This document shows, in pieces, positions 57,038-63,970 of a stretch of DNA of 64,000 nucleotides; position 1 is the first letter of the stretch, and the number at the start of each line of letters is the position of its first letter. The stretch comes from an uncultured Clostridia bacterium (GTDB lineage: Bacteria; Bacillota; Clostridia; Christensenellales; UBA1242). The DNA lies in the NCBI GenBank assembly GCA_944381215.1, contig CALWKF010000007.1:1173-65172 (forward strand). The letters run 5' to 3'. The position numbers were made by a program, and so were the translations under genes. The notes beneath the pieces were generated by a model, which did not search any database, had not been told where the DNA came from, and worked only from the letters and a program-made list of their open reading frames with translations.

Positions 57038-58939
57038 TTAATAAAATTCTTGGTTTTGGTCGTTGTTGGTGTCGAAGTTGGCGTTTGATTGGTCGAGGGG
57101 GACAAAAACGGCGGTGATTTTTTTGTTGTAGGCCTCGGCTTTGGTGAGAACGAGATTGTCGGTCGTGCCTAGGTTGTTGCCTTCGCCGTCTTCCCAGTGC
57201 GAAAAGCGGTAGCCGTTTTGCACGAGCCGTGCAATGAATGTAATTGTGTCGTTATCGCCGAGATTTTCGAAGTCGTCCCCTACTATGCTAGCGACCCCAC
57301 CAGCCGTTGCTGAGACTACTATACCGTTCGCACCACCACTAGCACTGGGTGGTGAAAGAGTTTGCTCAATATTGGTAAAGTATAATGTTATCTCGACATC
57401 ATCTATCACGCCCGAAACCTCAAAAAGTACACGAGAGGCGGAGGCGTTAGTTAGATATGTGATACCTAGGCAGGTATCATCAGCAATTAATGTGCCACTT
57501 AAATATTCAATATCTTGCGGGGGCCCGCCGTTTATTGATACCGAGTCGAGATAATTATCTGCGGTAAAGTCGAGTTGATGTCGTTGGACAATATCATCGG
57601 TTGCGGTGTTATTTATCGCAATTTCGGCACCACTATTGCTTGTGGTAAAAATAACCTGTGGCAGTCTAAAATATGCGGTATATGTTTCGCTTTTAGTAAC
57701 TGAAAAAGTATATGGGTTTTCGTAGATTTTGTTCCCGCTACTATCTTGCCAGTAGTCGAAAATATAGCCATTTATGCCTGTAGCGGTAATGGTGGTGGTA
57801 CCGGTGTAGTCGTAATCGAAATTGCCACCGCCTGAGACCATACCTTGTGAGGAATCACTTGACTCAGCTCTAATACTCATACTTAACATTTTGTCAAGAT
57901 TTAAGTGAAGCGCTGCCCGCACCCCGCGGCTATTGTAAACATAGTAAGAGCCAAGCGAAGAGCCGGAGGAATAAAGGGAGTAAGCATTGCGCGAAGAATA
58001 ATAGTCACCAGACCGCGACCACCAATTAGTAGAAGCAGAACGTTCTGTTGTGGATAACTCCCAAATACCTAACTTAGAATCACTTGTACCTGTCTCTGAA
58101 AGGCTGGGAAGCCAGAGATAGTCATTCCCCCACTGCGTGTAGTATGTTTTAGTTTGATAAATTCTATTACCAGAATAGCCTGAGAGATTCGTTGCGAGAG
58201 ATTCGTTGTTTAGAGTGTATCCTTGTGGGTTATTGCTACCTGTTAGTTGGGCTTGGGTTTGATACCATACATTTTTTGGCTGAACAAGATAGTTTGTTAG
58301 ACCTAGCGAGTCTACAGTAAAGAGCGCATATTTGTGGGAAGAGCTTTGAGTTGCTTGAGTTACACTTGTAGGATTTGAATTATTGTTGGCAATTTTTACA
58401 TATGGTCCACCATTATTTAAAGTAACCGCACGAATGTGGCTAGTACCATACATACTAGTTGGATAGCCACTAGTAAAGCTATTACCACCATAGTTAGAAC
58501 TACTATTTCCGTATGTTGCAGTGCCATCATTGTTAACCATTAAAAGTGTTGCAATGCGGGCTCCTGTGGTATCATTTGTACGAGTCAAATATACAACTAT
58601 CCAATCATAATCGCCTATAGTAACCTTTATATACTGATCGGCATATTTCCCGCCGTATGTATACCAACGAATGTCTGCAGCAGTCTGGCGGGTCGTATTT
58701 ACCCCATTTATTGTACCATCACTCGATATGTAACTTAATAATTGATTTAAGTTTGTCTGATTAAAAGACTTTGATTCGCTATCCCAAAGTTGAGGTACAC
58801 TTATCCAATCTCCAGCAGGTTCTGGAGTAGCGTTAACTATGCCATTTGGGCTAAACAAGAAAGCGGTTAAAAGTGTGGCTAGGCAAAAAATGCTGGCAAT
58901 CGCCACAATTACTCCAGTTTTGACCTTTGATAATCTCAT
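57038..58939 (-). CDS. Signal-anchored surface protein, paralogue of 31453-34047 (DUF6273-like domain + Listeria-Bacteroides-type repeats)
   Basis: N-terminal TM/signal segment. WWSRSG...RGVRAALHLNL. Two G-Y-x-F-x-x-W repeats (GYIFDYWQD..., GYRFSHWED...). RBS is AGGAGAGG. Confidence 0.6.
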   Translation of the reverse strand: MRLSKVKTGVIVAIASIFCLATLLTAFLFSPNGIVNATPEPAGDWISVPQLWDSESKSFNQTNLNQLLSYISSDGTINGVNTTRQTAADIRWYTYGGKYADQYIKVTIGDYDWIVVYLTRTNDTTGARIATLLMVNNDGTATYGNSSSNYGGNSFTSGYPTSMYGTSHIRAVTLNNGGPYVKIANNNSNPTSVTQATQSSSHKYALFTVDSLGLTNYLVQPKNVWYQTQAQLTGSNNPQGYTLNNESLATNLSGYSGNRIYQTKTYYTQWGNDYLWLPSLSETGTSDSKLGIWELSTTERSASTNWWSRSGDYYSSRNAYSLYSSGSSLGSYYVYNSRGVRAALHLNLDKMLSMSIRAESSDSSQGMVSGGGNFDYDYTGTTTITATGINGYIFDYWQDSSGNKIYENPYTFSVTKSETYTAYFRLPQVIFTTSNSGAEIAINNTATDDIVQRHQLDFTADNYLDSVSINGGPPQDIEYLSGTLIADDTCLGITYLTNASASRVLFEVSGVIDDVEITLYFTNIEQTLSPPSASGGANGIVVSATAGGVASIVGDDFENLGDNDTITFIARLVQNGYRFSHWEDGEGNNLGTTDNLVLTKAEAYNKKITAVFVPLDQSNANFDTNNDQNQEFY

Positions 58940-59405: not shown

Positions 59406-59663
59406 ATGAGTATAGGTGAAATTATAAGGTTGTTGCGAATAGAAAACAATATGTCGCAAACTGCATTAGGTAATATATTATATGTATCACAAGATACAAT
59501 TTCGAGTTGGGAACTTGGAAAAAGCAAGCCCGATTTTGACATGTTGCGAAATATTGCAATCATATTTGATATTTCTTTGGATGAGTTAATGGATATGGAA
59601 AACTATCGCAATGAATGGAGTAAAAAACAAAAAGAACAAGAATTAAAACAGCAGAAAAACTAA
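59406..59663 (+). CDS. XRE-family helix-turn-helix protein (85 aa)
   Basis: MSQTALGNILYVSQDTISSWELGKSKP is an HTH_3 signature. No clear SD sequence. Confidence 0.65.
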   Translation: MSIGEIIRLLRIENNMSQTALGNILYVSQDTISSWELGKSKPDFDMLRNIAIIFDISLDELMDMENYRNEWSKKQKEQELKQQKN

Positions 59664-59691
59664 AAGAGTAGACTTTTAAACCTACTCTTTT
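59662..59691. terminator. Bidirectional intrinsic terminator (XRE gene / yebC array)
   Basis: aaaagagtag acttttaaac ctactctttt. Confidence 0.75.
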
Positions 59692-59699
59692 ATATAGTT

Positions 59700-59747
59700 T
59701 TACTCTTCCTCGATTTCCTCTTTGATGTTAACATTGTGGTAAACATT
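59700..59747 (-). repeat. Copy A of the yebC 3' end (would encode NVYHNVNIKEEIEEE*)
   Basis: 42 of 48 nt identical to 59987-60034, with frame and stop preserved. Confidence 0.9.
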
Positions 59748-59756
59748 TAAGGAAAG

Positions 59757-59794
59757 CACAAAAAGCAGTCGAAGATGTATGCGTGCTTTTTGTG
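59757..59794 (-). other. Hairpin in spacer 2 (11-bp stem cacaaaaagca/tgctttttgtg)
   Basis: Perfect stem with a 16-nt loop. Positional homologue of the hairpin at 59902-59939 but with a different stem sequence. Confidence 0.7.
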
Positions 59795-59844
59795 GTGTGC
59801 AAAATGTATACCACCCCAAGCATATCGCTATACTAGACTAACTA

Positions 59845-59892
59845 CTAGTCTTCTTCGACTTCCTCCCTAATATTCACGTTGTGGTATACATT
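59845..59892 (-). repeat. Copy B of the yebC 3' end (would encode NVYHNVNIREEVEED*)
   Basis: 34 of 48 nt identical to the functional end. Most differences are at third codon positions, and the stop is kept as TAG. Confidence 0.9.
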
Positions 59893-59901
59893 TCTTGAAA
59901 A

Positions 59902-59939
59902 TTTGAAAAGCGGACAAGTAAGCGTGCGTGCTTTTCAAA
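59902..59939 (-). other. Hairpin in spacer 1 (10-bp stem tttgaaaagc/gcttttcaaa)
   Basis: Perfect stem with an 18-nt loop. On the minus strand it is followed by attttc. Confidence 0.7.
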
Positions 59940-59986
59940 CTGTCAAGGTGTTTACCACTCGGCAAGGCTGTCGACCAAACTTACTA

Positions 59987-60730
59987 TTAATCTTCCTCAT
60001 TCTCTTCTTTAATGTTAACATTGTGGTAAACATTTTGTACATCGTCATTTTCCTCGAGGTTGTCGAGCATTTTCATAAATGATGTGTACTTGTCGTCGGG
60101 CAAGTCCATTGTTTGTTGCGCAATCATTTCGAGTTCTGCTGAAACAATTTCAAGGCCTGCCTCGGTGATTTTGTCGCGCATGGTAGCCAAACTCGTTGCC
60201 TCACCTATAAATGTGTACCCCTCGGTATTGTAATCGAAATCATCGGCACCAGCATCCATTGCAATCATCATGACATCATCCTCAGTAAGCCCTGCCTTTG
60301 GCTTTGTAGCAATTACTGCCTTGCGGTCGAACATAAAGGACACGCTCCCAGGGCCACCAAGCGCACCGCCTGCTCTATCAAAAATGTGGCGGACATCGCT
60401 GGATGCGCGGTTCTTGTTATCGGTCAAGATGTCGCAAATTACGGCACTACCGCCTGGGCCATAGCCCTCGTACATCATTGACTCGTAGTTCACGCTCGCG
60501 CCCTCGCCACTTGCCTTTTTAATACTGCGCTGAATGTTGTCGTTCGGCATGTTGTTTGCACGCGCCTTGGCAATCACGGTCGCAAGTTTAGGGTTTGTCG
60601 CAGGGTCAGGACCGCCCGCCTTAACGGCAACTGCAATTTCCTTACCGATTTTTGTAAAGATTTTTCCGCGCGCCTGGTCGGTTTTTTCCTTGTCGCGCTT
60701 TATGGTTGACCACTTACTATGACCTGACAT
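59987..60730 (-). CDS. yebC: YebC/PmpR-family DNA-binding transcriptional regulator
   Basis: MSGHSKWSTIKR N-terminus and DDVQNVYHN C-terminus. Confidence 0.93.
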   Translation of the reverse strand: MSGHSKWSTIKRDKEKTDQARGKIFTKIGKEIAVAVKAGGPDPATNPKLATVIAKARANNMPNDNIQRSIKKASGEGASVNYESMMYEGYGPGGSAVICDILTDNKNRASSDVRHIFDRAGGALGGPGSVSFMFDRKAVIATKPKAGLTEDDVMMIAMDAGADDFDYNTEGYTFIGEATSLATMRDKITEAGLEIVSAELEMIAQQTMDLPDDKYTSFMKMLDNLEENDDVQNVYHNVNIKEENEED

Positions 60731-62926: not shown

Positions 62927-63970
62927 TTATTGCATTTGCTGTTGAGATAGATTGTTAGACCTTTCAGCAAGATATTTTAGCACATCATCGCCTTCAAAAC
63001 TCGTACGCCAATTCTTAGATATTTCGTATTGCGAGTTTTCTTTGTTAAAAAAGCTACGATATTGTTTAATTAAGCCTGCTTTTAGCAACGAATTAATTTC
63101 TATTAAGTCTTGGGCACTCACCTCGGACTTATTTAGCACTGAGGACCTATTTTGTTGCTTTTCCTGAATTTTTAGCATCAACTTTTGCTGACGGTCACTC
63201 AAGCGTTCTGCTTTGTTTTTAATCGTTTCACTATACACTGGCGCAACATCTTTTATGCCCTGTGGAGTTAATCTGTATACAACTTTCATACAATTATTTT
63301 TCTTATCTTCCACAATATCATACTCAACCTGCTTTTTAGCAATTAAGGTCTTTAAAGTCTTATTAACATAATCCGTAAGCAAATCTAATTTACAACAATA
63401 AAATAAATATTTGTTACTTAAAACATCATGCAAGAACCTAGAATCGCATTGTTTATCATGGGTAAAACATTCATATAAGCAAAATAAAACACCTCTTTCA
63501 AAATAAGTATCATTTAAATTCCCCATTCTTGCCTCAAACACATCATTGGTATTTTTAAAAAGATAATTCAAAGCATACCAACCAAGCCCTGTTATTTTCC
63601 ATTTAAATTGCTCAGCCTCGCCATTTGGAACGCCTACTTTTTTAGGATATATTAAATTTGCTTTATATAAAACCTCAAAAACATCTGCATATTTCTCCAT
63701 TGCGTCAAGGTCTAATTTATTAAAATTATTTTTTGAAAAATATTTAATAAAAATTATTCTTTGTTCTTTTGTTAAACTCTCTAAAGCATTAAATATTTCC
63801 AACTGATAATCAAGCCGAACTTGGTCTACCATTTGAGGAGAAAGTTTGTACATGGCTACAAAATCATTTTTTACCTTTATAAAATTATAAGTAATAACAC
63901 CTTCAACAAAAAGATTTATCAAATTTTTTCGAATCTTAGCAGAAACTTTAGACCTCTGTTTTTTACTCAT
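62927..63970 (-). CDS. Hypothetical protein (347 aa), AT-rich gene, possible winged-helix segments
   Basis: Long intact ORF. I recognise no family motif. VVYRLTPQG is reminiscent of wHTH wings. Confidence 0.45.
   Translation of the reverse strand: MSKKQRSKVSAKIRKNLINLFVEGVITYNFIKVKNDFVAMYKLSPQMVDQVRLDYQLEIFNALESLTKEQRIIFIKYFSKNNFNKLDLDAMEKYADVFEVLYKANLIYPKKVGVPNGEAEQFKWKITGLGWYALNYLFKNTNDVFEARMGNLNDTYFERGVLFCLYECFTHDKQCDSRFLHDVLSNKYLFYCCKLDLLTDYVNKTLKTLIAKKQVEYDIVEDKKNNCMKVVYRLTPQGIKDVAPVYSETIKNKAERLSDRQQKLMLKIQEKQQNRSSVLNKSEVSAQDLIEINSLLKAGLIKQYRSFFNKENSQYEISKNWRTSFEGDDVLKYLAERSNNLSQQQMQ

Follow-up and report, generated by a model that had tools for sequence, protein, structure and literature searches.

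A stack of alternative 3′ ends of the gene yebC was found in a 64,000-nucleotide (nt) stretch of DNA from an uncultured Clostridia bacterium (contig CALWKF010000007.1, assembly GCA_944381215.1; this whole stretch is referred to here as the window). The gene, a member of the YebC/PmpR/TACO1 family (247 amino acids, positions 59987-60730, minus strand), was recognized from the open reading frame (ORF) list, from homologues carrying Pfam domains PF01709 and PF20772, and from a gene order that matches related loci. Downstream of its working end, the 3′-terminal codons recur twice, separated by spacers that contain an inverted copy of the gene end and a covarying stem-loop. The number of ends differs among strains of the species, an end displaced in one strain is the working end of another, and in the sequences searched the module is confined to yebC. 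With moderate confidence, we interpret the locus as a strain-variable stack of alternative yebC 3′ ends that is moved by general homologous recombination at a conserved core encoding QNVYH. Stacked displaced gene ends occur at the integration sites of large mobile elements or where toxin genes swap their tips; the stack described here is built at miniature scale on a conserved housekeeping gene, without a cargo gene and with no recombinase in sight.

All features of the array are given on the minus strand. End C (59987-60034; NVYHNVNIKEENEED and stop, 16 codons in total) serves as the working end of the window strain, and the same tail forms the C-terminus of P0124 (P numbers denote related YebC proteins and L numbers related loci; all comparison sequences are metagenome assemblies). 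An exact-protein look-up with the window YebC returned no record. End B (59845-59892; NVYHNVNIREEVEED and stop) is displaced, and end A (59700-59747; NVYHNVNIKEEIEEE and stop) is the original end adjoining the terminator. The periods between the ends are 142 and 145 nt. An initial annotation of the window had described the three ends at these coordinates and with this period, and had proposed that the copies evolved as coding DNA rather than drifting after a local duplication. Both the description and the proposal withstood closer analysis. Of the 48 nt compared between ends C and B, 14 differ, and third codon positions account for 11 of these (hypergeometric P = 4.7e-5). As first reported, eight of the ten altered sense codons are synonymous, two are nonsynonymous, and the stop is kept (TAA to TAG). 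None of 200,000 simulated mutants with 14 substitutions retained the stop with two or fewer amino-acid changes. From the proportions of nonsynonymous and synonymous differences (pN and pS; Nei-Gojobori), pN/pS is 0.06 for C versus B, 0.09 for C versus A, and 0.12 when pooled over eight tails of the species. This coding signature, and the service of copy A in L211, support reading the downstream copies as alternative gene ends, or ends formerly in use, rather than as local duplicates that have drifted.

Core 1 (GTACAAAATGTTTACCAC, 60023-60040) spans codons V-Q-N-V-Y-H. This is the last nucleotide block conserved clade-wide; it bounds every cassette on the left and provides the 5′ arm of a stem termed H1. 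Considering all lineages, the left edge of the direct repeat lies 0 to 4 nt upstream of AATGT and varies from one lineage to another. Searching with a 23-nt core and allowing three mismatches returned matches only at copies C and A, with 0 expected by chance. The array goes undetected by Tandem Repeats Finder because its copies are too diverged. Several other explanations of the repeated ends were tried and rejected. Read-through of the yebC stop is ruled out because in-frame TAG and TAA codons come next after end C and because copy B lies out of frame (142 is not a multiple of 3). Small ORFs from the ATG inside the core are not conserved, and copy B stops after 5 codons. Mutagenesis of the diversity-generating retroelement type is at odds with mismatches that involve all four bases and lie at third codon positions, and no reverse transcriptase was found in the flanks of the window array or of related loci. 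As a separate observation, codons N-V-N-I of ends C and A (60011-60022 and 59725-59736) form a palindromic stretch, AATGTTAACAT(T/C), which is a perfect 12 nt in end C, matches at 11 of 12 positions in end A, and is absent from copy B.

Comparison with contigs of the same species, whose flanks are 98-99% identical to the window, shows that cassettes occupy the stretch separating the gene body from the original end, and that they are gained and lost within the species. One end is present in L211, two are present in L001, L002, L006, and L212, and the window has three. Aligned to the one-end allele L211, the window differs by a single gap: both cassettes (142 + 145 nt) are missing as one clean 287-nt block (59749-60035). 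The flanks of the two loci are 98.1% identical, with zero mismatches from 59748 down to 59541. In L211 the single end is followed directly by the terminator, and copy A, the terminator, and the start of the adjacent XRE gene are base-for-base identical to the window. Copy A is thus nucleotide-identical to the working end of L211, and by sequence comparison it also forms the C-terminus of proteins P0125 and P0128. The spacer is B-type in L001, L002, and L006 and C-type in L212, and in L007 a C-type spacer follows a tail of the L001 type. Proteins that share at least 99% body identity with the window YebC have at least eight different working C-terminal tails, that of copy A included, and their variation is concentrated at tail residue 12 (N, V, I, or A). 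Five of the nine assemblies with the same YebC protein (L003, L004, L005, L008, and L009) end inside the yebC stop codon; the locus breaks metagenome assemblies because contigs end exactly where strain variants diverge.

The nearest relatives are genomes assembled from metagenomes of animal and human guts and bear the labels uncultured Clostridia or Christensenella-like. The same organization, as arrays or as one cassette with a decayed relic, extends to three other species of the clade. Three ends are found in L010 (YebC 93% identical), and two in L090 and L091, which come from its close relatives. L010 corresponds to L090 plus one cassette adjoining the gene body, and its second copy is the end that works in L090; copies 2 and 3 of L010 are the working ends of P0003 and P0134. 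In this pair, as in the window compared with L211, newer units stand ahead of the older end, on the side of the gene body. L206 (YebC 87% identical) likewise has three ends, at a period of 106 nt, and L011, L017, L092-L099, L012, and L100 have one cassette each, a relic of the old end in varied states of decay, and a strong terminator. Empty sites, in which the stop is followed directly by the terminator, are found in L200, L205, L186, and all more distant loci. The initial annotation had named unit-number polymorphism and empty sites as features to look for in relatives, and both are now documented, with one, two, or three ends within the species alone. On a neighbour-joining tree of the yebC body, the module is constant in one sub-clade and patchy in the other, and across 142 yebC loci with enough downstream sequence, the core repeat with inverted copy is seen in no further lineage.

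Each cassette is 106-145 nt long. It begins with the last 11-16 codons and the stop, continues with an inverted, decayed gene-end copy, and closes with a stem-loop, H2, which lies between the inverted copy and the next direct copy. Homology between the two window spacers amounts to 71% identity over 90 nt (family D2), and the t/a variant of the core agrees between each window unit and its own inverted copy. Homologous spacers with an inverted core, a matching variant, and hairpins of 10-11 bp had been noted initially, and pairings I1, I4, I3, and I5 were verified. In cassette 1, the inverted core inv_C (59944-59958) is the 3′ arm of H1 and pairs with 60023-60037 (I4; duplex -18.4 kcal/mol). 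In cassette 2, inv_B (59796-59825) is an inverted copy of GTGCAAAATGTATACCAC and the start of the tail (I1, 59802-59825 with 59870-59893; I2). A stretch of 19 nt within inv_B is complementary to a yebC body carrying GTG-CAA, which is the state of the gene when cassette 2 was joined to the body. A small hairpin spanning stop codon B (AGACTA/TAGTCT, 59835-59851) is the stop-proximal remnant of the inverted gene-end copy; the inverted copy in cassette 2 equals the direct copy in length, and both of its ends are preserved.

In L100 the inverted copy runs through the whole gene end and the stop to a point 10 nt past it; in L012 it spans the whole gene end minus a 20-nt deletion; and in L090 and L011 it measures 27 nt. 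Because the inverted copy reaches beyond the core and up to the whole gene end, the order of the locus is direct, inverted, direct. The best-kept inverted part is complementary to GTN-CAA-AAT-GTN-TAY-CAC, that is, to gene body plus core, and the inverted segment fits the sequence of its unit when joined to the body better than it fits the flank of the next unit. Likewise, of the 11 units that adjoin the gene body, 9 form a stronger duplex with the upstream core (H1) than in the alternative pairing. Compensatory changes are found in H1, and lineage-specific codon variants are mirrored in the inverted copy; coding core, inverted core, and downstream core covary three ways, as seen in L100 (CAGAAT) versus L012 (CAAAAC). 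In nearly all units, one long hairpin takes in the inverted core, H2, and the next core. A different long hairpin is seen in L100 (3729-3895), with the gene end and its full-length inverted copy as arms and about 135 extra nt, bounded by TTTCCTTGTT and AACAAGGAAA, as the apex loop. A DNA inversion switch between core and inverted core was considered and rejected: no flipped variant occurs in 13 contigs of the species, and the flipped frame lacks a conserved peptide.

The H2 stem-loops occupy 59894-59947 in cassette 1 (H2_C; I3, 59894-59911/59930-59947; core stem 59902-59911/59930-59939 with an 18-nt loop) and 59757-59794 in cassette 2 (H2_B; I5, 59757-59767/59784-59794; an 11-bp stem with a 16-nt loop). 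Both show covariation, with covariance-model matches of 73 and 84 bits, respectively. That pairing survives changes in the stem had been suggested from the two window copies, and the covariance analysis across 12 units bears this out: pairing reaches 99.2%, and at 6 of 10 pairs both partners have changed in compensation. None of 500 shuffles reaches the observed values, and slid partner columns are 39-49% paired. The G-U pairs of H2 fit the sense strand only (two in the alignment and one in L212, with 0 for the antisense strand), and the RNA fold of the whole yebC 3′ region has a z-score of -5.5 relative to shuffled sequence. The spacer hairpins thus probably act as RNA structure in the yebC 3′ untranslated region (3′UTR), as judged from these patterns. 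For H2, this supports one half of an earlier suggestion that the spacers form a structured 3′UTR or terminator module. The other half fails, in that H2 does not pass an intrinsic-terminator scan, has a loop of 14-18 nt, and in the type found in L206, L012, and L100 lacks a U run. The sole canonical intrinsic terminator downstream of yebC on its strand is a 14-bp stem with a T run at 59661-59692 (terminator scan; I6). Because this terminator follows copy A, all three ends are probably co-transcribed.

The idea that H2 is a diverged copy of the yebC body was rejected, with about 7 of 24 positions matching, a random level. Rfam 15 gave no match at the gathering score for the window region or nine related loci, the best E-value in the window region being 0.49. 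One feature specific to cassette 2 is that the H2_B loop TCTTCGACT (59767-59775) is perfectly complementary to codons EVEE of tail B (59852-59860). The tail of L001 differs from tail B at two bases, yet it pairs with the H2_B loop via G-U. A kissing interaction between this loop and tail B (9-nt complement, I11) does not recur in other lineages, and the complementarity is probably due to chance.

Tail divergence within the species far exceeds that of the gene body. Within the species, pS of the yebC body is 0.03-0.10, compared with 0.68-0.91 between species of the clade. For the eight tails of this one species, the pooled pS is 0.73, so by the yardstick of the gene body, tails within the species are as diverged as those of separate species. 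Between strains, identity within one spacer type is 93-98%. The tails are mosaic, with variable break points, and are paired with different spacers. Their divergence (pS 0.73 with pN/pS 0.12), together with this mosaicism, indicates that the tails are old alleles held under purifying selection and shuffled in short patches.

The module was further examined for occurrence elsewhere, the search for copies and recombinases covering 64 kb of the window genome and the yebC neighbourhoods of relatives. A covariance model built from the inverted core, H2, and the next core, run with filters off, retrieved only the two known copies from the 64-kb window, and in 198 related loci (1.18 Mb) it matched yebC ends only. 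In the sequence searched, a small part of any one genome, the cassettes therefore do not behave as dispersed intergenic repeats found at many unrelated loci, such as repetitive extragenic palindromes or bacterial interspersed mosaic elements (REP/BIME) or miniature inverted-repeat transposable elements (MITEs); an unrelated dispersed repeat was the outcome that the initial annotation had named as contradicting its interpretation. No such repetition of a gene end was seen for the window's 53 other long ORFs. The earlier remark that no integrase is adjacent also holds, since the neighbouring genes were identified and none encodes a recombinase, either in the window or in the flanks of related loci. 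In BLAST searches, a 37-nt chance match in Lactobacillus phages was the sole phage result, and plasmids yielded no match. Viral-contig scans with the core and both spacer types gave 12 matches, all unrelated on inspection. Neither an attP-like copy nor a parent element was found in the viral contigs, phages, and plasmids searched, and no literature report joining yebC with attB and an integrase was found. Seven viral contigs (L192 and L194-L199) contain a short frame, ...QNVYHNVNI..., beside a CI-like repressor gene. This frame comes without a YebC body or spacer, and it was judged a chance match to a degenerate pattern.

Homologous recombination is favoured because the core stands on both sides of the spacers, because break points vary, and because no recombinase, parent element, or foreign copy was found. 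Copy number apparently changes via ordinary recombination rather than through an integrating mobile element. In the mechanism we propose, cassettes would be gained, lost, and reshuffled by general homologous recombination, with the core of 12-24 identical nt that flanks every spacer permitting out-of-register pairing and the gene body serving as a long homology arm. Exchange could take place between sister chromosomes or with the DNA of other strains. Short-patch conversion among tails would give rise to the mosaics, and deletion between cores would put a displaced tail back in service, as in L211. Because every tail would serve at times as the working end following such a deletion, all copies would stay under purifying selection and look coding, an account that has been partly shown.

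A template switch during replication may have created the first cassette in place, in the manner of a tandem inversion duplication. Such duplications, like quasipalindrome template-switch rearrangements, have been described in Salmonella and Escherichia coli. An origin in place, rather than from foreign DNA, is suggested because each cassette holds a decayed inverted copy of the host gene's own end, and template switching is suggested by the direct-inverted-direct order together with a flipped loop in a nearby terminator. In the species of L092, the terminator hairpin about 75-95 nt past the yebC stop has its loop in opposite orientations in L092/L097 and in L093/L094/L099 (gaccAAACggtc versus gaccGTTTggtc; aaac versus gttt). 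Such a reverse-complement loop polymorphism is typical of template switching (PMC7202029) at a hairpin, and its presence between strains indicates that template switching operates at the locus. As in tandem inversion duplication, the yebC array has the order direct, inverted, direct, with hairpin-like junctions and later trimming by deletion. The differences are that its segments are about 50 nt and that its structure is fixed and conserved across species rather than an unstable intermediate. In addition, the second junction is not a palindromic turn-around of the gene: it holds the extra hairpin H2, which is dissimilar to the yebC body upstream of the core. Once in place, H2 and the base of H1 would be maintained as RNA structure in the yebC 3′UTR, most likely to protect or shape the 3′ end of the mRNA.

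Several observations weigh against this account. H2 resembles neither the terminator nor the yebC body, and a plain tandem inversion duplication would not make it. The right-hand homology arm, the core, is just 12-24 nt, which is short for RecA-type exchange. Within the species, spacers are 93-98% identical while adjacent tails are about 30% diverged, a contrast that calls for very short conversion patches or recurrent selection. Finally, the relics of L012, L092, and L100 match the working core perfectly over their first 11-23 nt but are decayed beyond, and this preserved relic core could instead be the core site of a recombinase or a functional RNA arm.

The last of these points also bears on a competing explanation, that the cassette is a miniature non-autonomous integrative element, an attP-like unit of 106-145 nt that brings a replacement gene end and is inserted at the QNVYH core by a tyrosine, serine, or Xer-type recombinase encoded elsewhere. 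We consider this unlikely. Such a recombinase might act on a folded single strand, as with integron attC or CTX phage attP, and the clean presence/absence boundaries at one short core (L211), the entry of new units always beside the gene body, the core that is direct on both sides and inverted inside each unit within its long hairpin, the perfectly kept relic core beside a decaying relic tail, and the patchy occurrence in one sub-clade would all fit. In accretion by integrative and conjugative or mobilizable elements (ICE/IME; the ICESt1 family and many IMEs), serial events leave target-gene 3′ ends as direct repeats, with the incoming DNA bringing a replacement end (PMC5704250). The yebC units are similarly flanked by direct repeats, corresponding to attL and attR, that contain the 3′ end of the target gene. 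Unlike these elements or their cis-mobilizable derivatives (CIMEs), they have no ORF, integrase, element-gene remnants, or attP-bearing parent in the loci, viral contigs, phages, and plasmids searched, and their spacer is partly derived from the host gene, in inverted orientation. The array also recalls integrons in its gene-proximal entry, in units that end in an imperfect hairpin whose outer arms are the inverted and direct core, and in a structure conserved more than its sequence. However, the identified flanking genes include no IntI, the cassettes are gene-free, the array lies inside a coding sequence, and the integron core motifs RYYYAAC and GTTRRRY are absent, the outer arms reading ACATTTTG and CAAAATGT. 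Serial integration of elements carrying a replacement end, which the initial annotation had cited as the known process behind stacked gene ends, is not supported here: the absence of a recombinase and of copies at any other locus searched is joined by an inverted segment that copies the host gene's whole end and fits gene body plus core better than the next unit's flank. Junction positions and tail-spacer combinations vary as well, and such variable, mosaic end points argue for general homologous recombination rather than integration. A bolder and somewhat less probable extension is that the cassette is a gene-free, self-propagating gene-end unit with its own replacement tail. It would spread across strains and species by hairpin-dependent single-strand recombination (integron- or CTX-like, with the recombinase elsewhere) or by using its two core copies as homology arms, and its hairpins would possibly act as a translation-sensing RNA switch too. 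If a dedicated mechanism were to exist, these cassettes would be among the smallest mobile units known.

A second line of explanation places function in the RNA rather than in recombination: the inverted core would pair either with the coding core (H1, which encloses the final codons and stop) or with the next core downstream, forming a 3′UTR switch that reports whether ribosomes finish yebC and sets mRNA stability, the extra ends being by-products of unequal core-core recombination. The strong covariation of H2, its sense-strand G-U pairs, the three-way core covariation of L100 versus L012, and the fold z-score speak for such a cis-regulatory RNA, as does the gene itself, since YebC-family proteins are now seen as translation factors that relieve ribosome stalling (PMC11990639, PMC12234827). 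We nevertheless hold it to be doubtful, because no Rfam family matches, H1 is lost in L017 and the alternative pairing in L011, the module is missing in several close relatives and in the same-species strain L211, there is no downstream gene to control, and the relic full-length tails beside the terminator are left unaccounted for. Less probable still is an adaptive stockpile of C-terminal tails, in which the short acidic YebC tail would be swapped under diversifying selection, for example against a tail-binding inhibitor. The model here is the orphan C-terminal (CT) modules CdiA-CT/CdiI and Rhs-CT, whose displaced 3′ ends lie downstream, start at a conserved motif (VENN), and are proposed to be exchanged by homologous recombination (PMC7662968). 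The yebC ends share this layout, being stacked downstream, starting at the conserved NVYH, and serving as the working end in other strains, and the eight or more working tails on nearly identical bodies, with variation focused on residue 12 and with ancient alleles (pS 0.73), are in keeping with it. Unlike the orphan CT modules, however, they belong to a housekeeping translation factor, span only 11-16 codons, and include neither a toxin domain nor an immunity gene, no ORF follows the tails, and the only cargo is a hairpin-forming spacer of about 60-100 nt that includes the inverted gene-end copy. A pN/pS of 0.12 denotes purifying, not diversifying, selection; the amino-acid differences are few and conservative, relics are decaying in five lineages, and no immunity or inhibitor partner gene lies beside the tails. 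As for an assembly artefact, in which strain variants of a one- or two-end locus were chained into a false tandem array, it is suggested by the exclusive use of metagenome assemblies and by the several contigs that break at the yebC stop. It is nonetheless most improbable, given that the three copies are distinct enough for unique k-mers, that junctions such as spacer C end/core B occur only in arrays, and that arrays of two or three ends recur across independent samples, assemblers, and species.

Under the favoured reading of recombining alternative ends, the last conserved block of a gene, once repeated, can serve as a recombination hinge that keeps several ancient end alleles within one species. 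For annotation and strain typing, the array is a hypervariable marker at which assemblies tend to break. The spacer, for its part, adds to a translation-factor gene a strongly covarying RNA or DNA hairpin that is specific to the clade and matches no known family.

The array lies in the gene order infC-rpmI-rplT-trmH-yebC, followed by a convergent gene for an XRE-type helix-turn-helix (HTH) protein, a surface-protein gene with InlB B-repeats, rpsB, and tsf; frr lies farther along. The surface protein gene (57038-58939, minus strand; 633 amino acids, InlB B-repeat/Flg_new_2 domain) is hypervariable among strains: relative to L001, identity is 60-89% per 100 nt over most of its length, compared with about 99% in the flanking genes. 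Upstream of infC, a 347-amino-acid ORF (62927-63970, minus strand) has no Pfam match, nor does its L001 counterpart, which was called at 393 amino acids. In a cassette-free lineage with 82% YebC identity, L203 (about 2330-2660) and L204 contain a non-coding stretch of about 330 nt between yebC and radC that is G+C-rich in an A+T-rich genome; it has no Rfam match and may be a new structured RNA.

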